Shown: positions 12,038 to 59,458 of the stretch, piece by piece
Layout: each line of letters opens with the position of its first letter
How positions within the stretch are numbered: the first letter of the stretch is position 1
Virus record (IMG/VR): IMGVR_UViG_3300043411_001639
Coordinates: 1-64,000 of that record
Origin: a virus
Direction: 5' to 3' (one strand)
DNA: 64,000 nt
Notes under the pieces: generated by a model
Seen by the model: the letters and a program-made list of their open reading frames with translations, nothing else
The model's database searches: none
Told to the model about the DNA's origin: nothing
Made by a program: the position numbers and the translations under genes

Positions 12038-12502
12038 ATGAGTTATTGTTATTCAGACACTAGTTTTGATGAACAAGGAAAACCTGTTTCTTCAGCAGAA
12101 TTTCTTGAGTTTAGAAACAAAGAGTTTTCTGTTGAGACATATAAGCAATGGTTGTATCTTAGAGTAACTGAAACTAATGAAGGTGTAAAAAACAAGATCT
12201 TCGTAGAAGAATATCCAGATTATTACAAACATCCTGGCAACTCTTACAGAGAGTTCTATGGGTTCAAGATCTATGCTTATAAATCATCTAACTGTCTAGG
12301 ATTCTGTGCTGTTATCCAAAACCCTGACTTGAGTTGGTGGTTTACTTCTGGATATTATGATGGTGATGATTGCACCGATGAGCAGGATCTTCTTGAAGAA
12401 TTCTTGTACAAGTCCAAATTCTTTGAAGAACAAGTTAACATACCCAATTCAATCAAAACAACATTCAAACAACTAATAAAGGAACACATAGAAAGACCAT
12501 GA
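12038..12502 (+). CDS. hypothetical protein
   Basis: 154 aa ORF. Confidence 0.7.
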   Translation: MSYCYSDTSFDEQGKPVSSAEFLEFRNKEFSVETYKQWLYLRVTETNEGVKNKIFVEEYPDYYKHPGNSYREFYGFKIYAYKSSNCLGFCAVIQNPDLSWWFTSGYYDGDDCTDEQDLLEEFLYKSKFFEEQVNIPNSIKTTFKQLIKEHIERP

Positions 12503-13179
12503 CAGTATATTATCAACAACAACAAGCAAACAGATACCTAACAAAAATTGAACAACTCTTAGATCCTAATGCTGTTTTAGCTGGCGGGGCTCCTAGAGAT
12601 TGGTTCTTTAACCGAAACGCTAAAGATCTAGACATCTTTGTCTATCTTGGTGAACAGAACAAAAAACCTAGTTACTGGAAACAGAAACTAGAAGACGTTG
12701 GGTTTAAGGTTAGTGCCATAAAAAACAAATATGGTCCTAAAGACGGTATGTTTGCTCAGTGTTTTGAGTGGACAAAAAATATATTTGCAAGTTGTAAACT
12801 TACTAAGTCTACTAACCAAGAAGATTACATTCTATCAATGAATCCTTATCTTGAGTGTGTAGTTGATATTGAAGTTGAACCAGGAGAGAATCCTGTTCAG
12901 ATCATGATCATGAATCAACCTGTTGATCAGTGTACTTACACTAAATTTCCAGTATCAATCTCACAGATCTGGTACAAGAATGGAAAGTTTAATAAAACTC
13001 CTGATTTTCTTGTAGGAATCAAACACAACATCATCTATCCAACTGGAATTGATAACAGTATGGATGGTAAGTACACAAAGAAAGTACGTGAGAAGTTTCC
13101 TGAGTTTGAATATCTAGACTCAAAAGATAAAGTTATTCACTTTTTGTCTGATAAACTATCTTCTACTCCTTTTCGCTGA
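12499..13179 (+). CDS. CCA-adding/poly(A) polymerase-like nucleotidyltransferase (head domain)
   Basis: LAGGAPRD...KDLDIFV = class II NTase motif A (GGxxRD...DxD). Confidence 0.75.
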   Translation: MTVYYQQQQANRYLTKIEQLLDPNAVLAGGAPRDWFFNRNAKDLDIFVYLGEQNKKPSYWKQKLEDVGFKVSAIKNKYGPKDGMFAQCFEWTKNIFASCKLTKSTNQEDYILSMNPYLECVVDIEVEPGENPVQIMIMNQPVDQCTYTKFPVSISQIWYKNGKFNKTPDFLVGIKHNIIYPTGIDNSMDGKYTKKVREKFPEFEYLDSKDKVIHFLSDKLSSTPFR

Positions 13180-13247: not shown

Positions 13248-16214
13248 ATGAAAACCCTCAATCAAAAACTATTTGTTGAAACAGAACTAAAGTGGCTGAA
13301 GCATTGGGAAAAAACCGATGTATTCAAGAAAACACTAAGGGGCGAGAAAACCTATGTTTTCTATGATGGTCCTCCTTTTGCTACAGGTTTACCTCATTAT
13401 GGACACTTGTTAGCTTCTGTGGTAAAAGATGTTGTACCACGTTACTTTGCAATGAATGGTTTTTTGGTTGAAAGACAGTTTGGTTGGGATTGTCATGGTG
13501 TTCCAGTTGAGAATGAAGTACAGAACCAACTAGGTTTGTTTTCAAATAAACAAGTTGTTGACTATGGAGTTGACAAATTTAATGAAACATGCCGTTCTGT
13601 TGTAAGACGTTATACTCAAGAATGGAAAGAAACTGTCCATAGAGTAGGACGTTGGGTTGATATGGAAAAACCGTATCACACAATGGACTTTGATTTCATG
13701 AATTCAGTCTGGTGGGTTTGGAAAGCTCTCTATGATAAGAACCTAACCTATCAAGACTATAAAGTTGTACCATATTCTGTTGGACTAGGTTCAGGTCTAT
13801 CAAACTTTGAGGCTGGACAGAACTATAAAACAGTTCAAGATCTTAGTTTAACAGTTGAGTTTGAAACAGATAACGGATATACTTTACTAGCTTGGACAAC
13901 GACACCTTGGACACTTCCAATGAATGTTGGCCTTGCTGTAAATCCAGAACTAAACTATGTTGTAGTTGAACAAAACAACAAACAATATGTGGTAGCAGAG
14001 AATCAACTAACAAACCAGTTTGTTGCTGGAACATCAGTCAAACAAACTCTAAAAGGTACTGATTTAGTAGGACTAACCTACAAACCTCTGTTTGGTTTTT
14101 CCTGTAAAAATCCCGAAGTAGTAGCAGGATCATTTGTTACTGATAGTTCTGGTACTGGAGTTGTTCATTTAGCTCCTTGTTATGGAGAAGAAGATTTTAG
14201 TTGTGCCAAAGCTAATGATCTTCCTTTGTTTCATGGTGTAAATGATGAGGGAAAATACTATCCTGGATTTGGTGAATTGTCGGGCAAACTAGCCTTTGAT
14301 TCAAACAACCTAGTAGCAGAACTTCTAGGAGATAAAGTTTATAAACAGCAAGTTTATGAGCATGAGTATCCTTTCTGTTACAGAACAGATACTAGACTTA
14401 TGTACCGCGCTGTAAATAGCTGGTATGTAAAGGTAGAACAGAATAGGGGGCAACTTCTAAAAAACAACAAGTTAACAAACTGGAATCCTGAATCTCTCAG
14501 GGATGGAAGATTTGGAAACTGGCTAGAAAACTGTAGAGATTGGTCTGTTTCACGTAGTAGATTTTGGGGAACTCCTCTGCCTGTATGGTTAAACAAACAA
14601 GGAGAAGAAGTTTGTTTTGGTTCTGCTAAAGAACTAGAGGAAGCTACAGGAGTTGTTTTAACAGATCTTCACAGTCATTTCTTAAAAGACGTTGTGGTTA
14701 AATCTAAACAAGGTGGCGATGATCTTGTTTGGTGTGGTTTTGTGTTTGATTGTTGGTTTGAAAGTGGAGCTATGCCTTATGCTAAGGTTGGTTTCCCTTG
14801 GAAAACCCAAACACTTAACACTCCAGCAGATTTTGTTGCCGAAGGACTTGATCAAACAAGAGGTTGGTTTTATACCCTTAGTGTTCTTAGTACACTGTTG
14901 TTTGACCAACCACCGTTTAAAAACGTAAGTGTTAATGGACTTGTTCTTGCTGAAGATGGCAAGAAGATGTCAAAAAAACTAAAGAACTATCCAGATCCTT
15001 CAGAAGTTCTTGAAGCTTATGGTGCTGATGCTCTAAGACTTTATTTCATGAGCAAACCAGTTGTTTGTGGGACTGAAATGAAGTTTTCTAAGAAAGAAGT
15101 TGAAGAACAAGTTAAGAAAAACGTTCTTAGACTTTATAATGCCTATCACCTGTTTGTTACCTATGCAAATCTACATGATCTTAAACCAACTGGAACAGTT
15201 CAACCAACTAAGTTCTTAAACAAATACTTGGTTGAACTTACTAATAACCTTACCTTTAATCTTTCTCAAGCTGTTGAATCATATCACCTTGAAAAAGTAA
15301 CAGGGTTTGTTACTGAGTATGTAGAGAACCTAGTAAACAACCATGTCAGACTAGCTAAACCGTTACTAAAACAAGGTGATGTTGAAACATTAAACGTAGG
15401 TTATCAGTGTTTACTCCAACTAGCTGTTAGTTTAGCACCTTTTACACCTTTCATGGCAGAAGAGTTTTATCAATCACTTGAAGGTCCACTAGAGAGTGTT
15501 CACCTTGAGAGTTATCCTAAACCTGAAAACCTGTTTAGTGTTTATGAAAAACAAATGGTAAGACTAGTAGAGGTTCTGGAGTTAGGGAGAAACTACAGAG
15601 AAAAACACAAACTTAGTTTAAAACTACCTCTTAAAACAATGGTAGTTTATGAGAACAACCTTGATGTTCTTGATGAGTTAAGAGAACTGGAAGATTGTTT
15701 AAAACAAGAACTAAACTTTGAACAGGTGTTGTTTAGTTCTGATGTTGAGTCTGTGTTTGATTTTAAAGTCAAACCCAACTTTAGCCTTCTTGGAAGAAAA
15801 CTAGGGCCTGAGATGAAATCATTTGTTGTTTATTTGGCAACTCTTGATACTCAAACAACACTCAATCTTGTCAAGACAAGAACAGGATTACAGTTTAAAG
15901 GAGTTGAAGTAACGTTTGATGAACTGGTTGTTGAAAAATTATCAAAACTCCCAGATGTTCTTACAACACCAAAGTATTGTTTAAGGTTTGATCTAACAGT
16001 AGATGAAAAACAACTTGAACAAGAACGGGAAAGAGAACTGTTCAGAGAAGTACAGGAACTACGTAAACAACTAAAACTAACTCCGGGTGATAAAGTAGTT
16101 CTGTGTTCAACAGAAGTTCCATCAGAAAGCCTTAGAAACAAACTAATGACAGAAGCTTTTGTTGTTGGGTTCAACACTGGTTCAGAAACAATGATGTTGC
16201 AACCTGTCCCGTGA
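13248..16214 (+). CDS. ileS: isoleucyl-tRNA synthetase, type II (eukaryote/archaea-like)
   Basis: YDGPPFATGLPHYGH, GWDCHG, WTTTPWTLP (CP1 editing), DWSVSRSRFWGTPLP, EGLDQTRGWF, KMSKK; long type-II C-terminus without the Zn finger. Confidence 0.96.
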   Translation: MKTLNQKLFVETELKWLKHWEKTDVFKKTLRGEKTYVFYDGPPFATGLPHYGHLLASVVKDVVPRYFAMNGFLVERQFGWDCHGVPVENEVQNQLGLFSNKQVVDYGVDKFNETCRSVVRRYTQEWKETVHRVGRWVDMEKPYHTMDFDFMNSVWWVWKALYDKNLTYQDYKVVPYSVGLGSGLSNFEAGQNYKTVQDLSLTVEFETDNGYTLLAWTTTPWTLPMNVGLAVNPELNYVVVEQNNKQYVVAENQLTNQFVAGTSVKQTLKGTDLVGLTYKPLFGFSCKNPEVVAGSFVTDSSGTGVVHLAPCYGEEDFSCAKANDLPLFHGVNDEGKYYPGFGELSGKLAFDSNNLVAELLGDKVYKQQVYEHEYPFCYRTDTRLMYRAVNSWYVKVEQNRGQLLKNNKLTNWNPESLRDGRFGNWLENCRDWSVSRSRFWGTPLPVWLNKQGEEVCFGSAKELEEATGVVLTDLHSHFLKDVVVKSKQGGDDLVWCGFVFDCWFESGAMPYAKVGFPWKTQTLNTPADFVAEGLDQTRGWFYTLSVLSTLLFDQPPFKNVSVNGLVLAEDGKKMSKKLKNYPDPSEVLEAYGADALRLYFMSKPVVCGTEMKFSKKEVEEQVKKNVLRLYNAYHLFVTYANLHDLKPTGTVQPTKFLNKYLVELTNNLTFNLSQAVESYHLEKVTGFVTEYVENLVNNHVRLAKPLLKQGDVETLNVGYQCLLQLAVSLAPFTPFMAEEFYQSLEGPLESVHLESYPKPENLFSVYEKQMVRLVEVLELGRNYREKHKLSLKLPLKTMVVYENNLDVLDELRELEDCLKQELNFEQVLFSSDVESVFDFKVKPNFSLLGRKLGPEMKSFVVYLATLDTQTTLNLVKTRTGLQFKGVEVTFDELVVEKLSKLPDVLTTPKYCLRFDLTVDEKQLEQERERELFREVQELRKQLKLTPGDKVVLCSTEVPSESLRNKLMTEAFVVGFNTGSETMMLQPVP

Positions 16215-16225
16215 CGTGGTAGTGT
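16197..16225 (+). promoter_or_regulatory. phage early promoter
   Basis: TTGCAA-17-TAGTGT overlapping the ileS 3' end. Confidence 0.8.
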
Positions 16226-16266
16226 CAGGTTGTCAGTAGGGCAGAGTAACACGGGAGACACTAAAG

Positions 16267-16464
16267 ATGGCAACAATCAAGTTTTCAGAGGGTGGTTCAC
16301 TCAAGAAGGTAATTGTAACTCTCTGTTGTCCTGAATGTGACAACTCAGAGGAATATTACGTAACCGAACTGATGGATCTTGGTTATCCACGTTGCGTTGA
16401 CTGTGACAAGTTTAAGAATGTTCTAACAGAACTCGTAGCTGTGGAAGGATATGTAGATCCATGA
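16267..16464 (+). CDS. small Zn-ribbon protein
   Basis: CPEC...CVDC; GGGAG RBS. Confidence 0.6.
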   Translation: MATIKFSEGGSLKKVIVTLCCPECDNSEEYYVTELMDLGYPRCVDCDKFKNVLTELVAVEGYVDP

Positions 16465-16783
16465 TTTCAGACGTAGAAAAATGGATTGTTGTTTCAATCT
16501 TTCTAACTCTAGCAATGTTTGCAGTTGTTATTTTCCTGGTGTTCTGACATGAAAAAAAAAACATGTGATGCATGTGGCAAAGAAACCTCAACGTTTGTTA
16601 CAGCAGTAAAACTTGGAGAGGTTAAAGTCTTTTGTCAAGAATGTGTTGTAAACTATCTCCAAGTTTCTGTTGATAGAATTGTAAATCTCATGTGGTGGGC
16701 TAAAAACAACGGTCCAAATCCTGGTTGATTATCTATGTCTCAAGTTGGGCGGCAGTCCTCAAAAAACCTACTTTAAGGGTTTT

Positions 16784-16857
16784 GCGCGAGTCGGATAGGT
16801 TGTCCGGTTTGGCCTTATAAGCCAATAGGCTGAGTTCAATTCTCAGCTCGCGCACCA
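16784..16857 (+). tRNA. tRNA-Ile(UAU), atypical D arm
   Basis: GCGCGAG/CTCGCGC acceptor, TTGGC-CTTATAA-GCCAA anticodon arm, CTGAG-TTCAATT-CTCAG, encoded CCA. Confidence 0.88.
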
Positions 16858-17829
16858 ATAAAATGAAACCTGTAAAACTATTTGGAAATGTTTTTTTGGT
16901 TCAGTCACGCAGTTCTGATGAACTGTTTGATCTGGTTCTATGTAAAGAAAACAGGGAGCTTCCACTGGTTGAAGAAATTCCAGACCCATGTTCATATCAT
17001 GAAACTGATTCTCACGTTCTTGATGACAAATATCTTGATCTTGTTGAACATTGTTTGGATGTTTGTACTTATCAGCAAACAATTGCTCTGCTAGAAGAAA
17101 TAAAATCAGAACAAGTTGATCCAACTAAAATAGCTGCATTTTTAACCAATCAAATGCTTGCGTGGTTTGAATCTTAACAAAAAGGTAAAACAATGATGAT
17201 TCTTTCTGTTGAACAAGGGCAAGCTCTGGTAGATAAATATTTTGGAAAGTATAATGAATTAAGAAAACAGTGTACAGTTTATTACAGTCAAGGTAAACAA
17301 CCTCCTGAATCTCTTGACTTGAAAGAAATGGAACTTTCTTACATGTTGAGACACATCAAAGAACTCCTTGAAGCAGAAGGTTTTGATTGTGTGTTTGATA
17401 TGGAACAGCCATTTGCAAGTTCTAGTGGGATTGTTCGGGTAAAACAATGACACGAAATGATATCAAAGACTGGAAAAGTATTAAAAGATTTTTCTACCCA
17501 GGTTCAAATCAAAGAACTGCTCTGATCATGGGAAGTTTTATTCTAAGCCTCTACCTGATGATGATTCTAACAATGATACTCAACGGTAGGAAACCATTAT
17601 GACAACTGTTCTTGAACAACTAATCAAAGCAGGTGGAAACAGTTATGGAATTCGTACAATTGCTGGGTTTTTGCTAACAATTGAAGATTGCAATGAAATT
17701 GGCAATTATGATAATTCTCCTATCCTCCAGGCAATGGAAGTTATGAAAGTCATTAAGAAGGTTGATCATAAAGCTTCTGATGGAAGAACTAAACTATGGG
17801 AACTTCAACAACTTCTAAAGATGTTTGAC

Positions 17830-17913
17830 GCCAAACTAACTTAACAGAGAAAAGCGGCCCCGTTGAAGGGGTGATAATTCTAGACGTTCCAGGTGCAATT
17901 CCTGGGTTTGGCA
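17830..17913 (+). tRNA. degenerate tRNA (Ser-UGA-like), possible pseudogene
   Basis: GCCAAAC/GTTTGGC acceptor, CCAGG-TGCAATT-CCTGG T arm, 6-nt GTTGAA loop, long variable region. Confidence 0.5.
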
Positions 17914-18172
17914 CTATAAAAGAAAACAACAATGAAAAACAAGTTAAAGTTTGGTTGGAATGTTAGTTGGTTGTTTTTTTTAACGTGGTTGAATCTAAGC
18001 CTTAGAGTGGTGGTTTTACTACTTGTTCCTGTGTTGATCATGTTACCTTTTACGACCAGATATTTACCTGTTCTTTATGTTTGTTATTTGTTTTATACTT
18101 TTGTTTGTAATTTAGCAGCATTTTTGATTGAATGGGGCAGTGTTTTATATCTTTGTAGAATCAAATAATCAT

Positions 18173-18249
18173 TGCAATGGGCTGGTTAAGTCATCAGTAA
18201 TGGACAAGAAACCCTAAACAAACAGGTGCAATTCCTGTCATTGCAACCA
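18173..18249 (+). ncRNA. tRNA-like RNA without a recognisable anticodon arm
   Basis: perfect TGCAATG/CATTGCA acceptor, ACAGG-TGCAATT-CCTGT T arm, ACCA end. Confidence 0.6.
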
Positions 18250-18344
18250 ATGGGTGGAAACAATTGCTGCAACGGAGTAAATAGTGATCTAATATAATAG
18301 TTCATCATCAATGACCCAATAAGACAGACAGGAACAATTCCCAT
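18250..18344 (+). ncRNA. putative structured RNA between tRNA-like elements
   Basis: ATGGG/CCCAT and AATTG/CAATT closing stems with a one-sided bulge; same architecture as 45248..45314. Confidence 0.4.
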
Positions 18345-18349
18345 AACAA

Positions 18350-18379
18350 CCTGCTAAGAGTTAAAAGCCTTAGCAGGTA
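18350..18379. repeat. 10-bp perfect inverted repeat
   Basis: ACCTGCTAAG-N10-CTTAGCAGGT. Confidence 0.8.
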
Positions 18380-18386
18380 TCAGTCT

Positions 18387-18545
18387 GAGAGAAAGTTAAG
18401 CGGTAACTGTTTTCATACACAAGTTTGCAGATGACTACGGTGATGGGTATTTCCAACAACAAGATCAGGGACGGTCTTAAGCTAAACCAGCAATGGTACT
18501 TGTGTCACTGTAAACAACTAGGTTCAAATCCTAGTTCTCTCACCA
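18387..18545 (+). ncRNA. 159-nt tRNA-like RNA with a long helical insert in place of the anticodon arm
   Basis: GAGAGAA/TTCTCTC acceptor + ACCA, CTAGG-TTCAAAT-CCTAG, AGTT/AACT D-like stem, nested GTTTTCA/TGTAAAC, ACACAAGT/ACTTGTGT, TTGC/GCAA helices. Confidence 0.7.
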
Positions 18546-20137
18546 AAGGAATACTATGACTATAACACAGTTTATTACTGGAATAACAATAATTTTATTG
18601 GTATTTATCACTGTTTCTTATATGATAGAGCACTAACCATGTTTATTCCAGATAAAACTCTAAGGTATAGCGGGCTATCCTTAGCCTGTGTATTGCCCGA
18701 AAATATTCAGATGAGTAATCTCCTTGAGAAATATTCGGAGGGTGTTGTAGACGAACCTGGAGATCCTGAAGATGGTTATGGATCAAAGATGATCTGTTTC
18801 CGAAATGACAAAACAGGTCGTTGTTTAACGGTTTATGAGCGGCACGGCCGTCTTCGTATTGGGTGTAATCCCAAATATCTTTATGAAGCAACGGAACTAT
18901 TGGAACAATTAAAACAATTATGAAAACTATTGAAACAATGACGGTTGAAAACTGGAGTGACAACTACATGACTACAAGAGGTGAAATTCTTGCCGATAGT
19001 TTTGTAGGATTGCTTCTTAAACTAGGTGAAGAGGGTTGGTGGTTTAGTTGTTTTAATCCAAAAACAATCGTTGAGACACTTGTATTTCAAAGGGAAACAC
19101 CATGACAATTTCATTTCCAGGTATTGTTGAAACAAAGTATGTTAAGTATGAATCTAAACTAGCTGAACAAGGAACTTATCATTACATCAATGACAATGGT
19201 GTAAAAATCAATTTTGATACCTTTGAGGGAGTTGTTGAACATTTTGGTTCACAAGGTTGGTGGTACAGTGAACCAACTGGATATAATGTTTTTATATTCC
19301 AGCGTTTTGAACCAAAACTAGTTGATGTTCCGGCAACCATCTGAATAATAACAACCATGTATAACACAATCTTTCTAAGAGTTGGTTCTGCTAAACATCA
19401 AGCTAATGCTATTCTTCCTTATTGTAGTTTTAGTCGGAGTAACTTTTGAAGGTATTGTAGAAGTAGTAAAGATTTTTATAAAAGGATAATAAAAACAATG
19501 ATTAAAGATGTATTTAAAATTCTCGGTGTGGCTGTACTATTCCTTCTGTTTGTAGCCTTGTTTTTAGCTGTGTTCTTTGGAATACCTGCACTAGTTCAAT
19601 GGTGTATTAACAGTATTGCTCAGAACGCTCATTCAGACTTTAGAATGGATTATTGGCTAACTTTTGGTTGCTGGATTGTACTAGGTTTAATTGGTGGAAT
19701 GTTCCGCAATTCTAACAAATCAAGTTCAACATGACATATAAAACTCTTAAATTTATACGATTAACTATGTTTTTTGTTTTTGTAGGATTTATTCCAGGTA
19801 TTTTTTGTTGGTTTGTATTTGATTTACCACTGTTAAAAACCATGGTGCTTGGATTGTTTGTTTTAAATATGGTTTTATTAAAAACCTTTATTCTTTCATA
19901 TGTTGAAGATTATTGGTATAATAACAAAAAATGATCATTGTAATATATCTTTGTTTAGTGCTAGGTGTCTTGTTTATTATAGCAGTTTTAGCAATGTTGT
20001 TAGGTATTTTAGTTGATATCTGGATTCATAAATGACAACTACAATTATATATTTTATCTGTGTGTTTATAACTTGGTGTGTTATTGATATTCTATAAATC
20101 AGTTGCAACCATCTTCCAACTCTGCTAGAGTTCCCAT

Positions 20138-51929: not shown

Positions 51930-52012
51930 CAAACCTTACCAGCGCCTCTACACTGCCCGCGGATATTCAAACCAACCATTTCCATCAACTGAATATAAAT
52001 CCAGCAAACCAG

Positions 52013-52041
52013 TTGCAACCACTGCCCGAACCTGCTAGAGT
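52013..52041 (+). promoter_or_regulatory. phage early promoter
   Basis: TTGCAA-17-TAGAGT; spacer identical to that of 48773. Confidence 0.85.
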
Positions 52042-52070
52042 AGGATCATCAAACGGGAAAGGAACTGACG

Positions 52071-52322
52071 ATGAGTGTCCTGAGAATCAAAGGTGTCAAG
52101 TTCGTAAACCGTCAACACCTGAAAGATCAGAAACAGATCCTCCTTCCCAATGAATACTATGAGAAACTGATCGGTGTTATCAACACACCAACCAAAGTAA
52201 CTCTGGCTTTCAAGTGTGGAAGACGCTGGAAGATGTACAGAGGATTCATCTACTCACAGACAGAAAGTAACTTCCGTTCAGAGTCTCAAACTCGCTGGTC
52301 TTGGCTCACTGTTGAAAAGTAA
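52071..52322 (+). CDS. hypothetical basic protein
   Basis: ATG after promoter and AAGGA RBS. Confidence 0.65.
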   Translation: MSVLRIKGVKFVNRQHLKDQKQILLPNEYYEKLIGVINTPTKVTLAFKCGRRWKMYRGFIYSQTESNFRSESQTRWSWLTVEK

Positions 52323-52549
52323 CATCAACTGACTCTCTCATAAAAGAAAAACAAAACAATGCATAACAAACTTGACCCCCGTGATCCCCGTTTCATTGAG
52401 TTTTACCTTTCTGGAGGAGATGTTCCGAAAGAGGTAAACGACAAAAACCCCAGTACTTCTCTTAGTTCAGAGGAGTCTGAGGTGCTTCTTAACCAGGGTT
52501 TCTATAAGCCTGTTGCTACAAAAGAAGGCGTTGGATTCAAGAACAACTG

Positions 52550-52729
52550 ATTGACACTCATAGTCTGAACAGTTAGGTGAACCCTTCAACAACCCAACGG
52601 AGCGTTTTCCTAACTGTTCAGGCAATGAACTACTGTCCGCGCTTCATTCATAGAGCGCCCGTCGTTGATTGCCTGAAACCCTCTCAAACCGGAATAACCT
52701 GGAATCTTTGGAAAACCCTAGAGGCAAAA
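52550..52729 (-). ncRNA. putative antisense-oriented structured RNA
   Basis: downstream of the only minus-strand promoter; hairpins CTGAACAGTTAGG/CCTAACTGTTCAG (52565-52621) and TTCAGGCAAT/ATTGCCTGAA (52617-52677). Confidence 0.55.
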
Positions 52730-52735
52730 CAGTTG

Positions 52736-52764
52736 ACACTAGCAGCTCTCACAGAGGGTTGCAA
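52736..52764 (-). promoter_or_regulatory. phage early promoter, minus strand
   Basis: reverse complement reads TTGCAA-CCCTCTGTGAGAGCTGC-TAGTGT. Confidence 0.85.
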
Positions 52765-52780
52765 CAGAGAAGTTTCATCT

Positions 52781-52796
52781 AGCAACCTCCGTGCCA
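52781..52796 (-). promoter_or_regulatory. sigma54 (RpoN) -24/-12 box
   Basis: minus strand TGGCACGGAGGTTGCT, perfect TGGCACG-N4-TTGC. Confidence 0.75.
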
Positions 52797-52802
52797 AAAC
52801 TG

Positions 52803-52821
52803 AGATTAGCTGAACTAATCT
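52803..52821. promoter_or_regulatory. palindrome with CTGAA core (type A) at the divergence centre
   Basis: AGATTAG-CTGAA-CTAATCT. Confidence 0.7.
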
Positions 52822-52826
52822 AGCTG

Positions 52827-52855
52827 TTGCAACCTCTCTTGGAACCTGCTAGTGT
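52827..52855 (+). promoter_or_regulatory. phage early promoter
   Basis: TTGCAA-17-TAGTGT. Confidence 0.85.
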
Positions 52856-52906
52856 CGGGTTGTCAGGTGAGGGATAGCAGGGCAGAACGAACGAAGGAAA
52901 AAAACC

Positions 52907-53050
52907 ATGATGGAACTCTCGCTCAACTTCTCCGTTTCTCTGGAAACCATCACGGGCTTCACGCCGGTTTTCGTGAGCATCATGGCCGCGTGTTTCGTCA
53001 TGGGAGCGTCTCTCCGGTTCCTGGTGTGCAAGGTCCGCGCCAACTTCTAG
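52907..53050 (+). CDS. small membrane peptide (47 aa)
   Basis: MMELSLNFSVSLETITGFTPVFVSIMAACFVMGASLRFLVCKVRANF; own promoter, AAGGA RBS; not in ORF track. Confidence 0.6.
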   Translation: MMELSLNFSVSLETITGFTPVFVSIMAACFVMGASLRFLVCKVRANF

Positions 53051-53070
53051 AAGTTAGCTGAACTAACTTC
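53050..53070. promoter_or_regulatory. palindrome with CTGAA core (type A)
   Basis: GAAGTTAG-CTGAA-CTAACTTC. Confidence 0.7.
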
Positions 53071-53075
53071 GGGTG

Positions 53076-53104
53076 TTGCAACCTCTGAGAGAACCTGCTA
53101 GGGT
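53076..53104 (+). promoter_or_regulatory. phage early promoter (leaderless)
   Basis: TTGCAA-17-TAGGGT; ATG 53111. Confidence 0.85.
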
Positions 53105-53110
53105 AAGAGC

Positions 53111-53221
53111 ATGAAAAAGGCGAACAAGGGCAAGCGGTGGAACAAGCGGGAAAAACGCCGCAACGAATCGCTGGACGGTCGCAAGCAACGGCGCAAGTTT
53201 CTCGCGAGTCTCACTGACTGA
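53111..53221 (+). CDS. 36-aa highly basic peptide
   Basis: MKKANKGKRWNKRENARNESLDGRKQRRKFLASLTD; leaderless start; not in ORF track. Confidence 0.6.
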   Translation: MKKANKGKRWNKREKRRNESLDGRKQRRKFLASLTD

Positions 53222-53222
53222 C

Positions 53223-53238
53223 TGGCATAGAGGTTGCA
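53223..53238 (+). promoter_or_regulatory. sigma54 -24/-12 box
   Basis: TGGCATAGAGGTTGCA. Confidence 0.7.
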
Positions 53239-53253
53239 ACGGAAAACCAACTG

Positions 53254-53282
53254 TTGCAACCTCCCCGAAAGGGTGCTAAGGT
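53254..53282 (+). promoter_or_regulatory. phage early promoter (tRNA pair)
   Basis: TTGCAA-17-TAAGGT. Confidence 0.85.
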
Positions 53283-53309
53283 AGAAGAGTAGGTAACAGA
53301 AGGAAGAAA

Positions 53310-53392
53310 GCTCTAGTGGCGGAATGGTAGACGCGGGGGTTTCAAAAACCTCTTCCCGCAAGGGAGTGAGAGTTCAAGTCTCTCTTGGAGCA
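53310..53392 (+). tRNA. tRNA-Leu(CAA)
   Basis: GCTCTAG/TTGGAGC, GGGGT-TTCAAAA-ACCTC, TCCC-GCAA-GGGA variable arm, GAGAG-TTCAAGT-CTCTC. Confidence 0.92.
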
Positions 53393-53435
53393 CAAAAGCC
53401 ACAAACGGCGCGGCAGTGTCGTTGGCTTGTCTCTT

Positions 53436-53508
53436 GCAACGGTAGCTCAACTGGCAGAGCATTCGGCTTTTAACCGAAGGGTTGAGGGTTCAAGTCCCTC
53501 CCGTCGCA
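53436..53508 (+). tRNA. tRNA-Lys(UUU)
   Basis: GCAACGG/CCGTCGC (one mismatch), GCTC/GAGC D stem, TTCGG-CTTTTAA-CCGAA, GAGGG-TTCAAGT-CCCTC. Confidence 0.9.
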
Positions 53509-53515
53509 CCGTGGT

Positions 53516-53531
53516 CGGCACCAGTCTTGCA
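53516..53531 (+). promoter_or_regulatory. sigma54 -24/-12 box
   Basis: CGGCACCAGTCTTGCA (GG-N10-GC spacing kept). Confidence 0.6.
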
Positions 53532-53546
53532 AACAAAAAAAGGCTG

Positions 53547-53575
53547 TTGCAACCAACCCCGCAACCTGCTAGTCT
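53547..53575 (+). promoter_or_regulatory. phage early promoter
   Basis: TTGCAA-17-TAGTCT. Confidence 0.8.
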
Positions 53576-53610
53576 AAGAATGTAGCAGGAAACAACCAAC
53601 GGAGTCAAGA

Positions 53611-54003
53611 ATGGCAAAGCGCACGACGGAAGAAACCATCGCTCACACCGTCAAGGTCAAGGGTATCGTCGCCGACCGCTCCGGCATCAACAACACGCGT
53701 GGCGCGCGTGCGATCATCGCGTCGGAAGTCTTCGGCGTCTCGCAGACACTCCGCAACCACGGCGCCGCCGCCGTCTTCGCGCTCCGCAACGGGGATAACG
53801 TCGTGGTGCTGTCCCGCGTCGCCCGCAAGGGCCGCCCGCGCTGGAGGCAAGTCGGGCACGGATCTTCCACGGTCATCACGTTCGCCCGCGTGCTCTCCGG
53901 TGGCAAGGTTTCCAAGGTCGTCAAGGCGTCCACGCTTGCGGAGCTCTGCAACAAGGGTGCCCGCTACATCGGGACGCGCGCCAACCTCTACGGCAACGGC
54001 TAG
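53611..54003 (+). CDS. GC-rich basic hypothetical protein
   Basis: GGAG RBS, G/C-ending codons in this frame, own promoter. Confidence 0.8.
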   Translation: MAKRTTEETIAHTVKVKGIVADRSGINNTRGARAIIASEVFGVSQTLRNHGAAAVFALRNGDNVVVLSRVARKGRPRWRQVGHGSSTVITFARVLSGGKVSKVVKASTLAELCNKGARYIGTRANLYGNG

Positions 54004-54010
54004 AACCCGC

Positions 54011-54026
54011 TGGCACGAAGGTTGCA
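54011..54026 (+). promoter_or_regulatory. sigma54 -24/-12 box
   Basis: TGGCACGAAGGTTGCA, perfect consensus. Confidence 0.75.
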
Positions 54027-54051
54027 AGGGCAAGGCAAAGAAAACCCGCTG

Positions 54052-54080
54052 TTGCAACCTGTTTCGGAACCTGCTAGAGT
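54052..54080 (+). promoter_or_regulatory. tandem early promoter 1 of 3
   Basis: TTGCAA-17-TAGAGT. Confidence 0.85.
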
Positions 54081-54136
54081 CTGAATGTAAGGTGAGAGGT
54101 AGGGAAGACAGAGAACCGGAAGGAAAAAGAATCCGG

Positions 54137-54165
54137 TTGCAACCCTCCCCGAAACCTGCTAGAGT
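54137..54165 (+). promoter_or_regulatory. tandem early promoter 2 of 3
   Basis: TTGCAA-17-TAGAGT. Confidence 0.85.
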
Positions 54166-54214
54166 CAGAGAGTGAGAAAAGGAACGGGGCCAGAAACTAG
54201 ACGAAACAATCTGG

Positions 54215-54243
54215 TTGCAACCCTCCGAAGAGTCTGGTAAGGT
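54215..54243 (+). promoter_or_regulatory. tandem early promoter 3 of 3
   Basis: TTGCAA-17-TAAGGT. Confidence 0.85.
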
Positions 54244-54314
54244 AAGAGTCAGAAAGGGAGTCAGGGTGGCAATGTCGCCTAGCCCACTCCCAAACCAGGA
54301 AAGAAAAAAGAATA

Positions 54315-55034
54315 ATGAACTCCATCAACGCCACCTCGCCCGTCGTTTCCTCGGATTCCATCGTCGCCGACCCCAACGCCTCGCAGGAGAACACCATGCA
54401 CACCCCCGACAACTCCGCCGACGCTTCGCCCCTGTCCATGCGCCCCGCGGATCGCGCCGCCCGCGGCGAGTCCCTCACGCCCGACGAGGAGGGCGCGCTC
54501 GCGGCCAGCGACGCGGCGGAGTTCCTCGCCTACCTCCGCGCACAGCGCGCGTACCTCGCCTCCGCGCTCGCGGCGGCGAAGGCCCCCAAGGTTCCGGGGA
54601 AGCGCGGGCCGCAGGGTCCCCAGCGCGGGAAGGTGGTCACGCTGGCCGACGGCCGGATGATGATCGTCGGCGCGGGTCTCGGCAAGCGGGCCGCGTTCAA
54701 TTCCGCGAAGGGTGCGCTCGGGGCGCGCGCGGAGCTCCTCCCCGGCGACGCGCTGAACATCGCCCTCGTGACGTTCGGGGCGGACGGGAGCGGCGTCCTC
54801 TACACCGTCAACGGTGTCGCGGGCGAGACGCCCCGCGGGAAGGGTTCGCCCGGTGTGTCGCTCTCTTGCACGCGGGCGGACAACGGCGAAGAGGTCGTGT
54901 TGTTTCCGACGATGGATTCCATCGTGGACGCGGTGTGCATCACGGGTTCCGCGGCGCTCCTCGCGGTGCTTCCGGTGCTTCAAGCGCAGAAGGTGCGCGC
55001 CGCGCGCGCAGCGAAGACGCCCGCCACGGTCTGA
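54315..55034 (+). CDS. very GC-rich Ala-rich hypothetical protein
   Basis: third codon positions almost all G/C in this frame; behind three promoters; possible internal start at MHTPD (AGGAG RBS). Confidence 0.8.
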   Translation: MNSINATSPVVSSDSIVADPNASQENTMHTPDNSADASPLSMRPADRAARGESLTPDEEGALAASDAAEFLAYLRAQRAYLASALAAAKAPKVPGKRGPQGPQRGKVVTLADGRMMIVGAGLGKRAAFNSAKGALGARAELLPGDALNIALVTFGADGSGVLYTVNGVAGETPRGKGSPGVSLSCTRADNGEEVVLFPTMDSIVDAVCITGSAALLAVLPVLQAQKVRAARAAKTPATV

Positions 55035-55062
55035 CGCCTCACCCGCCAGAATCCCACCTAAA

Positions 55063-55119
55063 GAAACCCCCCGCGACGACCCTAGAGAATAGGGAACCGT
55101 CCGGGGGTTTCCCCGTTTT
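55063..55119 (+). terminator. terminator-like hairpin
   Basis: GAAACCCCC/GGGGGTTTC stem with inner CCCTA/TAGGG, followed by GTTTT. Confidence 0.55.
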
Positions 55120-55184
55120 ACAACTTTGACCCCCTCTAGCCCCTGTACCCCCCCACCTCTACCTACCCGGACCCAGGAGGTGGT

Positions 55185-55200
55185 TGGCATGGAGGGTGCA
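55185..55200 (+). promoter_or_regulatory. sigma54-like box (one mismatch)
   Basis: TGGCATGGAGGGTGCA. Confidence 0.45.
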
Positions 55201-55225
55201 TGACCCACGAGATTCTAAACCAGAT

Positions 55226-55247
55226 AAAATTTTTCTGGGAATTTTTC
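55226..55247 (+). repeat. 22-bp direct repeat, copy 1 (phased T-tracts)
   Basis: AAAATTTTTCTGGGAATTTTTC, followed by TATTTA. Confidence 0.85.
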
Positions 55248-55264
55248 TATTTATGGGGACCTTT

Positions 55265-55903
55265 ATGTTATATTTTTCTAAATGGTTGTTTGAAAACGAC
55301 AATATAATTGATGATTTAAATACAGTGTTTTCAATTCAAGAAACTATAAAAACTGTTGAACAACATGGTTTAGAGCAGCTTGGTTTAGGAAACAACGAAG
55401 GAACAACAAGAATTGTTTTTAAACATCCAAATAACAAACAAGTGATTAAAATACCAAGACAAACAACATATCTCAAATATAATTTTAATGAGATTAAATC
55501 ATTTGCTTGTCTTGGAAAAGAATATGCTGCTGAGATAACAGAGTTTCATCCTAAAGGTTATTGGTTGATAATGGAACTTGTTAAACCATTTAAAGATCAT
55601 CAAGAGTTTAATCAGAAACTCCAACAAGTTTTAAACTTACCAGATACTATCAATGACGAACGTTTTTTATATAAAGCAGTGGTTCAGTTTAAAGAACAAG
55701 AAAGATTAAAACTTTCAACTAAACTATGTCATTCAAGTGAATGGTTTAGAAAACTTACAACCAAACTTTCCAGTTGTGAAGTAGGAGGACAAGATTTAAA
55801 CTGGTTTAACTTTGGATTAAGAGAATCAACAGGTGAATTGGTTATGTTAGACTATGCTGATTTATTAACAAATCCGGCTGTTCAACAACCTTGTTCCATT
55901 TAA
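55265..55903 (+). CDS. minimal protein kinase-like paralogue 1
   Basis: EGTTRIVF, VIK, NE, WLIME, DLNWFN, LDY; start ATG 55265 (MLYFSKWLFE) preferred to 55184. Confidence 0.8.
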   Translation: MLYFSKWLFENDNIIDDLNTVFSIQETIKTVEQHGLEQLGLGNNEGTTRIVFKHPNNKQVIKIPRQTTYLKYNFNEIKSFACLGKEYAAEITEFHPKGYWLIMELVKPFKDHQEFNQKLQQVLNLPDTINDERFLYKAVVQFKEQERLKLSTKLCHSSEWFRKLTTKLSSCEVGGQDLNWFNFGLRESTGELVMLDYADLLTNPAVQQPCSI

Positions 55904-55944
55904 AACTAAAAAAGGTTCATAAAATAGGGCGGGTAATGCCTCTG

Positions 55945-55966
55945 AAAATTTTTCTGGGAATTTTTC
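55945..55966 (+). repeat. 22-bp direct repeat, copy 2
   Basis: identical to 55226..55247, followed by ATATTTA. Confidence 0.85.
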
Positions 55967-55984
55967 ATATTTACCTCTAGTCTG

Positions 55985-56491
55985 ATGATAACATTACAAG
56001 AGTTTATATTTCTTCAAGAGGGAGACTTAAAACTAGTATCTCTTCATGGATGTGGGGAAGATAGTTTTGATATTGAACTTGATAATGATGAGGTTATAGA
56101 TTGCAATGATATAGCATCTAGTGTTGAGGAATTGTTTTACGATTCAAAGATTAGAATCATGAGGAATGAGAATCCTTATAATGCTATAATTGATTCTGGT
56201 ACTGGAAGGGTGATAGGGGCTAGTGTTATATCTTATGAACTACCAGAGGATTATGATGAATTTGAGCATGGTAATGGGGTTGTAACATTTAGTGTTGTGG
56301 TTGATCCAGAGTTTAGGGGACAGAGATTAGCTGAGAAGTTAATAAGGGATATAGTGAATAATCATAGGAGACAAGTTATCAAGGCTCAGGTTATTAATCC
56401 TATTATGGAGAAGATACTTATTAACTTAGGATTTGTTAAGGTTAGTGAATCAGGTTCTAGAGAAGGATTGGTTTATCAGTTAAAGAGATGA
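55985..56491 (+). CDS. GNAT-family acetyltransferase
   Basis: SVVVDPEFRGQRLAEKLI (motif A), N...LGF; N-terminus MITLQEFIFLQE. Confidence 0.85.
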   Translation: MITLQEFIFLQEGDLKLVSLHGCGEDSFDIELDNDEVIDCNDIASSVEELFYDSKIRIMRNENPYNAIIDSGTGRVIGASVISYELPEDYDEFEHGNGVVTFSVVVDPEFRGQRLAEKLIRDIVNNHRRQVIKAQVINPIMEKILINLGFVKVSESGSREGLVYQLKR

Positions 56492-57204
56492 ATAGTTTAT
56501 TTATGTTTGATCGGTTTTTGTTTGAGACTACTATTAATATCAATCCAGATAAAGTTATTTATGATCTTAAACAGGCAACAAGTTTTGGTGAGATTCAAGA
56601 GATAGGATATAAACTTAAACAGATAGGTGATGGTACTACTAGGAACGTGTATGACTTAGGAAGGAACCTTGTTCTCAAACTAGCAAAGTATCCTAATAAT
56701 AGTATCAGTAATTTAAAAGAGGTAGATTCATATCAGTGTTTAGGAAAAGAATACGCAGCACAGATAGTTGATTTTGATACAGAGAACTATTACTGGTTGG
56801 TTATGGAGAGGGTTAAAACTATAACAGCTAGAGAATTTCAGTCAAAGTTAACAGAGCTTATAGGATTTCCATTAACTCCAGAAGATATAGCATCTAGGTT
56901 TAAGACTGTTATTAGTAAAGAAGTTTATGTGGTGGGCGGTTATTATTATCTTCCACAGGTGTTACAACCTGGAAGATATCATTCCGGTACAGAGAGAGGA
57001 AGAGGATTAAGACAGTTACATGGTTTGTTATGCGGTCATAGTTCTTGGTTTAAGGAATTCAATAATAGATTAGTTAAGTGCAGAATTATGGCTGGTGATC
57101 TTGGATTTGGTAACTTTGGATTAAGACTGTCAACGGATGAGTTGGTGTTACTTGATTATGGGTTTGAGATGATTGAAGGGGATCAGATTGAATGTCATTC
57201 TTGA
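56488..57204 (+). CDS. minimal protein kinase-like paralogue 2
   Basis: IGDGTTRNVY, VLK, KE, WLVME, DLGFGN, LDYG. Confidence 0.85.
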   Translation: MNSLFMFDRFLFETTININPDKVIYDLKQATSFGEIQEIGYKLKQIGDGTTRNVYDLGRNLVLKLAKYPNNSISNLKEVDSYQCLGKEYAAQIVDFDTENYYWLVMERVKTITAREFQSKLTELIGFPLTPEDIASRFKTVISKEVYVVGGYYYLPQVLQPGRYHSGTERGRGLRQLHGLLCGHSSWFKEFNNRLVKCRIMAGDLGFGNFGLRLSTDELVLLDYGFEMIEGDQIECHS

Positions 57205-57869
57205 TGAAGATATTGTTTTTTGAGGATAGGAACAGTGATGTTTTTGATGGTATTACTGAGTTTAGTTCTATTAAGAAGACATTGTTAGTTAACAAGTTTA
57301 AGTTGATAGGTCATGGTACTACTAGGGATGTTTATTCTGTTCCAGGTGATGATAGTATTGTTTTAAAGGTTCCAAGGTATCCAGATGCATTTGAGGTTAA
57401 CTTCAGTGAGTTTAAGAATTTTGGTTGTTTGGGGGAGGAGTATGCAGCTCGTGTAATAGATTGTGATACAGTTAACGGTTTATGGTTATTGATGGAGCGT
57501 GTTATAACATTTAATCATTCTGATAAATTTGATATTGAGGTTAGTAAAAGGTTAGGGTTTGAGTTTAGTAAAGGTGGAATGATTAAGAAGTTTGGATTAT
57601 CTCCTGATAGTATTGCGAGGTTTCCTTTATTATCTTCGGCATTTGCTCCTGGTGATTATGACAAGGGTATTAATTTAAAGGAATTACTTTGTAAGAACAG
57701 TAAATGGTTTAGGGAATTGAACAACAGGTTAATTGATTGTGATGTTTACGCGGAGGATCTTGATTTTAAAAACTTTGGATTAAGAAGAGATACTGGAGAG
57801 TTAATATTACTTGATTATGGATTTAGTGCTAGTAAAGATAGTACATTAGGGGTACAGTCAAAATGCTGA
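57204..57869 (+). CDS. minimal protein kinase-like paralogue 3
   Basis: IGHGTTRDVY, VLK, SE, WLLME, DLDFKN, LDYG; TGATG-coupled start 57204. Confidence 0.85.
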   Translation: MKILFFEDRNSDVFDGITEFSSIKKTLLVNKFKLIGHGTTRDVYSVPGDDSIVLKVPRYPDAFEVNFSEFKNFGCLGEEYAARVIDCDTVNGLWLLMERVITFNHSDKFDIEVSKRLGFEFSKGGMIKKFGLSPDSIARFPLLSSAFAPGDYDKGINLKELLCKNSKWFRELNNRLIDCDVYAEDLDFKNFGLRRDTGELILLDYGFSASKDSTLGVQSKC

Positions 57870-57939
57870 TGAATCTGAATGAGTTTATATTTTTAAAGGA
57901 ACTAAAGAGTTACTTGGTTAGACCTAAAAACTATCAGTA

Positions 57940-58362
57940 TTAAGAGTTGATGAATTGATTTAATTTATTATTAAACTCAGTATCTTCTGGAAGTTTTGTT
58001 ACTATGATTTCTGTTGGATTGGGTTTGAATCTCTTCTCACCTTTGTTTACTAGTTGGTTATAAGCTAGGAACTCAGTGCTGCTTAGAGCTGTTAAAATAG
58101 TTTCCAGTGCTGTTTTAAGATAGACTAGTACCTTTGGATTTTTATAATCTAGCAAAGAAAGATCTAGTGTTAGAGCGGACATTAATCTAAAGTTAAAGTT
58201 GATAGGATTGATATTTTCTTCTATTAGTATCAGGTTTTGACTGTTTAAATCTTTGATGTTGTTAGGGAAGTTCCTGTTTAAGAAACCTACCAAACCAAGA
58301 ACTAGGAATAGTCTTAGTTTTAGTGACAGCACTGACAGTTTGTTTTTTATTGAAGTTATCAT
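57940..58362 (-). CDS. hypothetical protein with N-terminal hydrophobic segment
   Basis: 140 aa ORF, divergent from the amidase. Confidence 0.5.
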   Translation of the reverse strand: MITSIKNKLSVLSLKLRLFLVLGLVGFLNRNFPNNIKDLNSQNLILIEENINPINFNFRLMSALTLDLSLLDYKNPKVLVYLKTALETILTALSSTEFLAYNQLVNKGEKRFKPNPTEIIVTKLPEDTEFNNKLNQFINS

Positions 58363-58373
58363 ATCTATAGTAT

Positions 58374-59183: not shown

Positions 59184-59204
59184 CAACTAGGGTAAACTAT
59201 AATC

Positions 59205-59456: not shown

Positions 59457-59458
59457 TA

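Follow-up and report, generated by a model that had tools for sequence, protein, structure and literature searches.

Which kind of RNA, if any, is encoded by a stretch of phage DNA that starts and ends as a tRNA gene does, down to the CCA, and that holds a large branched domain at the place of the anticodon arm? This question is raised by a 159-nt element in a 64-kb stretch of DNA, referred to below as the window, which forms the first part of a 156.7-kb IMG/VR record.

Genomic setting and anatomy of the element

The record is 43% complete as estimated by CheckV, which implies a genome of roughly 360 kb. It codes for a gp23-type major capsid protein, two tail-sheath-like proteins, a Prim-Pol and an SbcCD-like fusion, and its small genes lie on one strand and are packed tightly; from this gene content we identify the source as a huge T4-like myophage. 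Relatives of its IleRS in IMG/VR are found on GVMAG contigs, and a giant-virus origin was therefore considered; it was dropped on account of the gp23 capsid, the sheath proteins and the phage-type gene packing, and for the same reasons we dropped the reading of the element as a tRNA with a eukaryotic-type intron. DNA of the locus was present in metagenomes of freshwater and of wastewater, from 11 studies in all. The element sits within a translation island, of the large kind that is known from huge phages and the logic of which is still debated; it is made up of the genes for IleRS, tRNA-Ile(UAU), an R2K ATP-grasp protein and MnmA (Table 1). The tRNA-Arg and tRNA-Ile genes on the upstream side encode their CCA, and six distant tRNA genes at 44-54 kb do not. 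The phage tRNA-Ile genes have a D stem of 4 bp with a 5-nt loop. A protein adjoining IleRS, which had been described as a CCA-type nucleotidyltransferase, gave no Pfam match.

Table 1. Coordinates of the element, its parts, its surroundings and its copies. Positions are those of the window unless a contig or the element is named.
Feature	Position	Strand	Remarks
tRNA-Arg	11253		encodes CCA
IleRS, 988 aa	13248-16214		2 kb upstream of the element
tRNA-Ile(UAU)	16784		encodes CCA
Two neighbouring tRNA-like elements	17830-17913, 18173-18249		within 600 nt of the element; anticodon arms broken
Upstream hairpin CCTGCTAAG...CTTAGCAGG	18350-18377	+	left edge of the cassette, outside the RNA; element starts 9 nt downstream
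T at -1 of the element	18386	+	
Whole tRNA-like element, 159 nt	18387-18545	+	
Acceptor stem, 5' strand GAGAGAA	18387-18393	+	paired with 18535-18541 (7 Watson-Crick bp); unchanged across the three variants
D-like hairpin (A8-U22, 5 bp), 5-nt loop AGCGG	18394-18408	+	RNAalifold consensus
TTCATAC, anticodon-loop-like, with CAU	18412-18418	+	unpaired in the MFE fold
Long arm, 5' strand (element positions 37-54)	18423-18440	+	pairs with 18500-18515
Fast-evolving patch (element positions 45-74)	18431-18460	+	contains hairpin 18444-18455
Invariant hairpin AAGATC-AGGGAC-GGTCTT	18461-18478	+	
Invariant hairpin ACCA-GCAA-TGGT	18486-18497	+	
Long arm, 3' strand (element positions 114-129)	18500-18515	+	
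Nested helices of the long arm	element positions 37-44/122-129, 46-49/118-121, 51-54/114-117		enclose 59 nt
T arm CTAGG-TTCAAAT-CCTAG	18518-18534	+	G53-C61 equivalent present
Acceptor stem, 3' strand TTCTCTC	18535-18541	+	
Discriminator A	18542	+	
Encoded CCA	18543-18545	+	
Shine-Dalgarno AAGGAA	18546-18551	+	starts 1 nt after CCA
Hydrophobic ORF of 26 codons, ATG at 18556	18556-18636	+	inserted together with the element (window, L116)
R2K ATP-grasp protein	20138		
MnmA	21473		
Identical copy	L110:8174-8332		in four runs: L110/L178, L179, L180, L181
Variant L108	L108:9666-9824		159 nt; 5 substitutions, all in loops or unpaired
Variant L116 = L119	L116:6005-6158; L119:5284-5437	L119: -	154 nt; 4 substitutions outside the patch, positions 45-74 rewritten

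The two ends of the element have the make-up of a tRNA: a 7-bp acceptor stem, a discriminator base, CCA, and a 5-bp T stem with a loop of the T54/pseudo-U55/C56/A58 type. The perfect acceptor stem with ACCA and the canonical T arm that had been noticed in the preliminary description are thus both confirmed, and the two stems together give a stack of 12 bp. The third acceptor pair is G18389-C18539 and not G-U, in agreement with the earlier remark that the alanine determinant G3-U70 is absent. The D-like hairpin was also recovered; its GG is kept in L116, where the loop reads AGTGG, and by analogy with tRNA could contact the T loop at the elbow. In these respects (acceptor, discriminator, CCA, a T arm with G53-C61, and GG in a D-like loop) the element resembles a canonical tRNA (RF00005), from which it differs in lacking an anticodon arm, in having A instead of U at position 8 and in a linker of 1 nt instead of 2 between the acceptor stem and the D-like hairpin. 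The place of the anticodon arm is taken by a branched arm of roughly 93 nt with two invariant hairpins and a fast-evolving one. As described before, three nested helices enclose a stretch of about 60 nt that includes the AAGATC/GGTCTT hairpin. The long arm also has an alternative 8-bp pairing, between ACACAAGT (18417-18424, element positions 31-38) and ACTTGTGT (18498-18505, positions 112-119); this alternative fold, through ACACAAGU/ACUUGUGU, is the MFE structure in L116, and it and the fold of the nested helices exclude each other.

The MFE of the element is -44 kcal/mol (z = -2.8), and none of 200 shuffled sequences was as stable. For the top half, we searched for a Watson-Crick acceptor stem of 7 bp and T stem of 5 bp with a TTCRANN loop and NCCA, over a span of 60-260 nt. 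On both strands of the 156.7-kb record this pattern matched the tRNA-Ile gene at 16784 and the element only, and in 200 first-order Markov genomes there were no matches with CCA and 0.035 per genome without it, indicating that the top-half motif of the element is far beyond chance. The sole ORF that spans the element (18425-18559, TTG start, 44 aa) is disrupted in L116 by gaps that sum to 5 nt, and we conclude from this that the element is not protein-coding. It is a real, non-coding, tRNA-like structure.

Comparison with known RNA families and tRNA models

No Rfam family matched the element at the gathering threshold, and cmscan at E<=10 returned nothing relevant among the tRNA, tmRNA, Y-RNA-like and intron models. 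A strong match to a covariance model of Rfam had been named beforehand as a result that could refute the novelty of this RNA; there was none, and the element belongs to no curated family. Model RF00005 scored 44-68 bits for the 7 other tRNAs of the window and had no match at 18387-18545. ARAGORN was equally blind to the element in its default, intron (-i), tmRNA (-m) and -ps90 modes, and standard tRNA finders and Rfam miss such anticodon-less tRNA-like RNAs entirely.

A manual scan of the sequence after the D-like hairpin found no anticodon arm (a stem-loop of 5+7+5); the best candidate, at positions 21-37 with TTCATAC as its loop, has two of its five pairs mismatched. We then removed, in silico, every interval with its 5' side at positions 20-74 and its 3' side at positions 80-132. 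None of the roughly 1,500 constructs was accepted as a tRNA by ARAGORN at the default threshold, and relaxed thresholds gave conflicting calls (Thr, Asp, Val and others). As a recognisable tRNA was thus not regained by any deletion, the element cannot be assigned to a parent tRNA. With -i at 80%, ARAGORN proposed a tRNA-Asp(GTC) with an 82-nt insert, in which the acceptor stem is shifted and mismatched and the 5' exon ends in C and not in U. The intron-containing tRNA of the preliminary description was accordingly not supported by these tools, as there was no -i call at the default setting, no tRNA from the deletion scan and no group I or group II signal in the intron models of Rfam. To our knowledge, 82-100 nt is too short for any self-splicing intron, and an insert of this length together with the missing Rfam signal excludes a self-splicing intron for practical purposes. 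A MITE-like insertion was rejected: the 8-bp inverted repeat ACACAAGT/ACTTGTGT has no target-site duplication, and its removal restores no tRNA.

A search of the 156-kb record for possible partner genes gave no match for SmpB (PF01668), TROVE/Ro60 (PF05731), a CCA-adding-type nucleotidyltransferase (PF01743) or RtcB; as this is 43% of the genome, their absence is weak evidence. What stands of the tRNA mimic proposed earlier is a complete top half with CCA on a body that is not that of a tRNA and that matches nothing in Rfam, and what is not supported are its versions as an intron-containing tRNA (above) and as a miniature tmRNA (below).

Variants, cassette borders and divergence

Copies of the element came to light only when the search was extended outward from near-identical copies of the IleRS and ORF94 proteins. 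Its known distribution is confined to very close strains, in which it occurs in three sequence variants. No homologue came from a blastn search of 50,697 phage records with the locus as query or from exact-pattern scans of IMG/VR, which gave one chance match inside a coding region. BLAST of the element against 50 capsid-bearing related IMG/VR records returned chance matches of 14-27 nt only, the best of them being the T arm of a tRNA-Tyr, and a covariance model of the element (R1) found no homologue in the 31 largest of these records. A pattern scan of JGI metagenomes led back to contigs that were already known (L116/L118 and L119).

The element is missing from many strains that are just as close (L100, L101, L104, L106 and L182-L188). 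In L106, L182, L187 and L188 there is almost nothing between the conserved upstream hairpin and the beginning of the following gene, and the element and the 26-codon ORF are missing together. In L106 this hairpin carries a compensatory change from G-C to A-T and is directly followed by a T-run, as in a terminator. On the other side, homology of L108 stops right after ACCAA, and the upstream homology of one metatranscriptome contig ends at 18364. From these comparisons the element is a strain-variable cassette whose borders are at most a few nt away from the predicted ends of the RNA, and a variable unit that coincides so closely with the predicted RNA is what would be expected of an RNA gene module.

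Across the three variants, RNAalifold keeps the acceptor stem, the D-like hairpin, the long helix, both inner hairpins and the T arm, and 99.3% of the pair cells in the model-fitted alignment are standard. The T loop of L108 reads TTCAACT, and in the T arm of L116 the change A147G results in a U-G pair. Pairing is kept by 6 of the 7 stem substitutions; of the 16 pairs in the long arm, 13 are invariant, 2 have a one-sided change that keeps the pair and 1 has a broken cell. Since transitions keep pairing about half of the time, this record gives only weak support to the fold. The covariation that had been suggested as a check did not turn up, with 0 double compensatory changes, and as the comparison comprises only three near-identical variants, this result weighs little either way. 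In a by-eye reading of the alignment, the patch forms a 4-bp hairpin at the same place in each variant (UGGG-UAUU-UCCA in the window, with AUGU as the loop in L108, and GUGA-GAAA-UCAU in L116); the stored alignment places gaps in this hairpin, and it was therefore kept out of the covariation count.

Identity to L116 is 93% at element positions 1-44, drops to 27% in the patch (positions 45-74) and rises to 98.8% at positions 75-159; it is 100% over the next 93 nt, which comprise the spacer and the 26-codon ORF, and 91.5% in the downstream gene ORF94. Third codon positions of IleRS are 16% diverged between the window and L116. Of the 129 element positions outside the patch, the window and L108 differ at 1, and the window and L116 at 4; four of the five differences from L108 fall within the patch. 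Over the 178 positions made up of the element's 3' half and the adjoining 93 nt on its downstream side, there is 1 difference from L116. Because those 93 nt are identical in L116, recent recombination contributes to the low divergence, and purifying selection would not be its only cause. The locus is a recombination mosaic, in which low divergence may reflect recent exchange rather than selection, and for this reason we do not claim selection on the element as proven.

Both neighbouring tRNA-like elements are in decay: in L116 and L119 they have lost their acceptor pairing or are fused to each other through a shared T arm, and a contig of run X18 shows the same T-arm joint. Two decaying tRNA-like neighbours raise the prior that the element is a pseudogene as well. 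L116 and L119 nevertheless keep the element intact beside these broken or chimeric neighbours, which favours function over decay, and the re-formation of the patch hairpin at the same place in all variants also favours function.

Possible roles and likeness to known RNAs

The likeliest reading, which we hold with moderate confidence, is that the element encodes a small phage RNA that resembles a tRNA but does not decode, an analogue of RNAC of phage T4. Near the element no promoter or terminator of its own was found, as motif counts match those of shuffled sequences, and we infer from the missing promoter that the element is co-transcribed with its neighbours in a polycistronic transcript. Bacterial RNase P and the 3' trimming enzymes read U-1, G+1, the acceptor/T stack, the elbow and the RCCA end. 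With U at -1 and its RCCA end, the transcript would be cut at G+1 by host RNase P, and its 3' end would be trimmed to CCA, as for the adjacent phage tRNAs that encode CCA. The product would be a stable, L-shaped RNA unable to decode, of which the tRNA-shaped half would open access to proteins that read the acceptor, the T arm, the elbow or CCA, and the long arm would carry the specific function. Its most likely use would be to bind or titrate a tRNA-binding factor, either a host defence or toxin protein or a phage translation factor. With no anticodon arm, the predicted RNA is unlikely to be a decoy for anticodon nucleases; on this model, it may instead bind, or act as a decoy for, factors that recognise the acceptor, the elbow or CCA. 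As antisense targets, complementary 10-12-mers occur in the 156-kb record at chance level.

Four metatranscriptome runs (Logan contigs) gave very little over the element. X15 yielded two contigs of read length at a depth of 2, and X16 yielded one 223-nt contig at a depth of 9.5 that covers 18364-18502 and runs upstream into unrelated sequence. Contigs from RNA libraries cross the 5' end of the element and none is bounded by the predicted RNA ends, which contigs as such cannot show; DNA carry-over is possible for all of them, and we count them neither for nor against expression.

Several other readings of the element have to be weighed. It could be a decayed tRNA gene, i.e., an ancestral phage tRNA whose anticodon region suffered an interruption or remodelling and which is now a drifting pseudogene, its top half surviving through the youth of the lineage or through recombinational exchange. 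The two tRNA-like neighbours with broken anticodon arms, which decay in L116 and L119, are what this reading would lead one to expect, as are the dispensability of an element missing from many close strains and the zero compensatory changes among the variants, and mosaic ancestry could account for the low divergence. We regard decay as fairly unlikely all the same, given that no copy shows damage to the acceptor stem, the T arm, CCA or either inner hairpin, that most stem substitutions keep pairing and that the inserted body itself folds into conserved hairpins. Another reading starts from the Shine-Dalgarno sequence and the ATG directly 3' of the CCA, and from the presence of element and ORF together in the window and L116 and their joint absence in L106 and L182. 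The tRNA-like fold would here be a cis-acting processing signal that lets RNase P and 3' trimming free the mRNA of the 26-codon ORF, and the excised RNA itself would have no role. In plant mitochondria, tRNA-like t-elements, which can direct RNase P and 3' processing, set the ends of mRNAs (PMC1920247), and like the element they have a non-decoding tRNA-like fold directly beside an ORF; the element differs from them in its kingdom, in the lack of homology, in its large extra domain and in the missing ORF after the L108 copy. L108 has the element without the adjoining ORF, and a role at an mRNA 5' end therefore cannot be the whole story. Moreover, the top half would suffice for this task, leaving the arm of ~93 nt and its invariant hairpins superfluous, and we think the processing signal improbable. 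Under the favoured reading as a gene for a tRNA-like small RNA, processing of the element could also set the 5' end of the ORF mRNA where the small ORF adjoins.

The element might instead decode. TTCATAC would then serve as the anticodon loop, the anticodon being CAU in the window but UAU in L116, either of which can stand for AUA (Ile), and the 91-nt domain at positions 38-128 would be a giant variable arm or a removed intervening sequence. This loop is single-stranded in the MFE fold and has U33-like and purine-37-like positions, and its sole change, from C28 to T in L116, turns CAT into TAT and so yields the anticodon of the phage tRNA-Ile. IleRS lies 2 kb upstream, the long helix begins exactly at the place of a class II variable arm and stops 2-3 nt short of the T stem, and the phage tRNA-Ile genes likewise have the short D stem and 5-nt loop given above. 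The stem that would carry the loop (21-25/33-37), however, has two central mismatches and leaves no nucleotide for position 26; ARAGORN at its default rejects all constructs without the long arm and makes no CAT call even at 90%, and RF00005 has no match at E<=10. By our own estimate a UU-NNN-R pattern arises in a 10-nt linker by chance with a probability of ~0.3, and we know of no tRNA with a variable arm of more than about 25 nt. A decoding tRNA is on balance hardly probable. It would be quite unlikely, too, that the element is a tRNA scaffold of a new kind, be it an AUA-Ile tRNA(CAU/UAU) with a 91-nt variable arm that works with the phage IleRS, or a chargeable or CCA-bearing mimic; as such a mimic, it would use the fast-evolving hairpin 18444-18455 as a specificity module and would belong to a wider class in huge phages. 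The miniature tmRNA of the preliminary description, a tRNA-like domain and P2-like helix around a short tag frame that rescues stalled ribosomes, has a probability that we put close to nil. Its order of acceptor, D region, long helix and T arm is that of the tRNA-like domain and P2 of tmRNA, in which a long helix leading to a larger domain also replaces the anticodon arm while acceptor and T arms are kept, and a 17-codon frame that starts with GCA and ends with TAA is present at 18427-18480. Related huge phages are reported to have tmRNAs (PMC7162821). Against this, the third acceptor pair is G-C and the G3-U70 determinant is thus missing, ARAGORN -m and the tmRNA models of Rfam were negative, and SmpB was not found in the 156 kb (43% of the genome). 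The tag frame is destroyed in L116 by substitutions, by the gaps summing to 5 nt and by an early TGA. The tag also has no hydrophobic degron end of the usual kind, there are no pseudoknots, and the element is under half the usual length of a tmRNA.

Among known tRNA mimics, the Y-RNA-like YrlA RNAs, whose tRNA-mimicking module is bound to Ro60/Rsr, were reportedly found by Chen et al. in 2014 to imitate the T arm, D arm and acceptor region of tRNA and to occur in some phages. In YrlA the RNA ends form a Ro-binding stem and the tRNA-like part is internal, whereas in the element the ends pair as an acceptor stem that leaves CCA free. That tRNA clusters of phages contain tRNA-like RNAs of obscure role, such as RNAC and RNAD of T4, has been known for 50 years. 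T4 RNAC (species 1 RNA, rnaC; NC_000866 70908-71046) has 139 nt, compared with 159 nt in the element, and is likewise a non-decoding small RNA that adjoins the tRNA genes of a T4-like myophage. It has a T arm (CCGGG-TTCGAAT-CCCGG) near its 3' end, paired ends and a long irregular arm with extra hairpins, as the element does. The two differ in the number and order of their arms, and the acceptor-like stem of RNAC is imperfect and its CCA not encoded, whereas the element has a perfect stem and encodes CCA. Also, RNAC has been detected experimentally, whereas the element is known here from sequence alone. Model R1 scored 21.7 bits on the 3' 95 nt of rnaC, which is the level of tRNA-Leu and tRNA-Ser (T4 tRNA-Leu: 23.4 bits), and with this model we found no homology between the element and rnaC beyond the generic top half. 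No Rfam family covers rnaC. On these comparisons, RNAC is best regarded as an analogue of the element and not as a relative. The biological role of T4 RNAC is still unknown (PMC3014915, PMC9697503).

A tRNA top half that ends in CCA and bears a foreign arm amounts to a natural 'tRNA scaffold', here near a phage IleRS and variable between strains. If it is expressed, the element would offer a second, tractable case in which to study the binding partners of such mimics, the candidates being processing enzymes, the CCA-adding enzyme, synthetases, EF-Tu and tRNA-targeting defence toxins; if it is merely a decaying tRNA, it is ordinary. Anticodon-less tRNA-like RNAs may be a wider, uncatalogued feature of huge phages, and the class may extend beyond this element, since a motif scan of four large related records gave three candidate tRNA-like RNAs, all missed by ARAGORN, in the 309-kb record G045 (L122:6719-6826, L135:8124-8219(-) and L136:9228-9324(-)). 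These candidates adjoin the tRNA genes of G045, and one of them has an acceptor of the G3-U70 type.

Mosaic between IleRS and the R2K gene

When the window was compared with loci L100-L117 and L178-L188, the stretch from IleRS to the R2K ATP-grasp gene (16200-20000) proved to be a hyperplastic mosaic, and nearly every close strain holds its own assortment of RNA elements and small ORFs there. At one of these loci, L104, we observed an ADP-ribosylglycohydrolase gene downstream of IleRS, and neither the R2K nor the MnmA gene was seen there.

The 159-nt tRNA-like element is bordered on its 3' side by a 26-codon hydrophobic ORF, which is 100% identical between the window and L116. Both the ORF and the element are missing from L106, L182, L187 and L188; at L108 the element is present and the ORF does not adjoin it. 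The good Shine-Dalgarno sequence of this ORF starts 1 nt past the CCA of the element. Directly upstream of the element is a perfect 9-bp hairpin. Since the L106 copy of this hairpin carries a compensatory change (G-C to A-T) and is immediately followed at its 3' side by a T-run, the hairpin looks, from its sequence, like an intrinsic terminator, with a T-run that in the window would have been displaced by the inserted cassette.

Further upstream, the window holds two more tRNA-like elements, both without an anticodon arm and with the unusual T loop TGCAATT. The L116 copy of the first has a normal T loop (TTCAAAC) and has lost the 3' strand of its acceptor; at L119 and in the metatranscriptome run X18, the two elements are fused via the T arm that they share, with position 17912 joined to 18246. 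Going by these sequences, both look like decaying or recombining pseudo-tRNAs.

Features in the window and in the related 309-kb phage record G045
Feature	Location	Strand	Remarks
226-aa ORF	window 12499-13176		immediately upstream of IleRS
tRNA-like element	window 17830-17913		first neighbour
tRNA-like element	window 18173-18249		second neighbour
Hairpin	window 18350-18377
26-codon ORF	window 18556-18636		MTITQFITGITIILLVFITVSYMIEH; Shine-Dalgarno 18546-18551
GC-rich island and high-skew block	window 52001-60000
tRNA, anticodon TTA	L097:462-537	-	G045; ARAGORN call; reads UAA stop
tRNA-like element	L122:6719-6826	+	G045; G3-U70-type acceptor GGGGCGC/GCGCTCC
tRNA-like element	L135:8124-8219	-	G045
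tRNA-like element	L136:9228-9324	-	G045; adjoins tRNA-Gln genes

tRNA-like elements and a predicted UAA-reading tRNA in G045

The three tRNA-like elements of G045 are 96-108 nt long and combine perfect acceptor and T arms with non-canonical bodies; none was called by ARAGORN. The anticodon-TTA tRNA that ARAGORN called in this phage, within a 12-tRNA array, may act as a suppressor, or it may point to recoding of stop codons in this relative.

Relatives of the phage IleRS and base composition

Outside the close strains, the nearest relative of the phage IleRS (13248-16214) shares 58% identity with it and is encoded on a Logan contig of 7 kb (L098), where genes for a class II synthetase (tRNA-synt_2) and an R2K ATP-grasp protein are present as well. 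Named relatives of cellular origin are about 45% identical and mostly labeled Bdellovibrionota, and relatives in IMG/VR, at 31-34% identity, lie on giant-virus MAG contigs. No Pfam family matched the 226-aa ORF at E<=0.01. A search for the CCA-adding-type nucleotidyltransferase family PF01743 across the 156.7-kb record was likewise negative.

Base composition also varies along the window: GC content is 0.52 at 52-56 kb, compared to about 0.35 elsewhere, and the 4-kb block that follows this GC-rich island (56-60 kb) displays a very high GC skew of 0.33.
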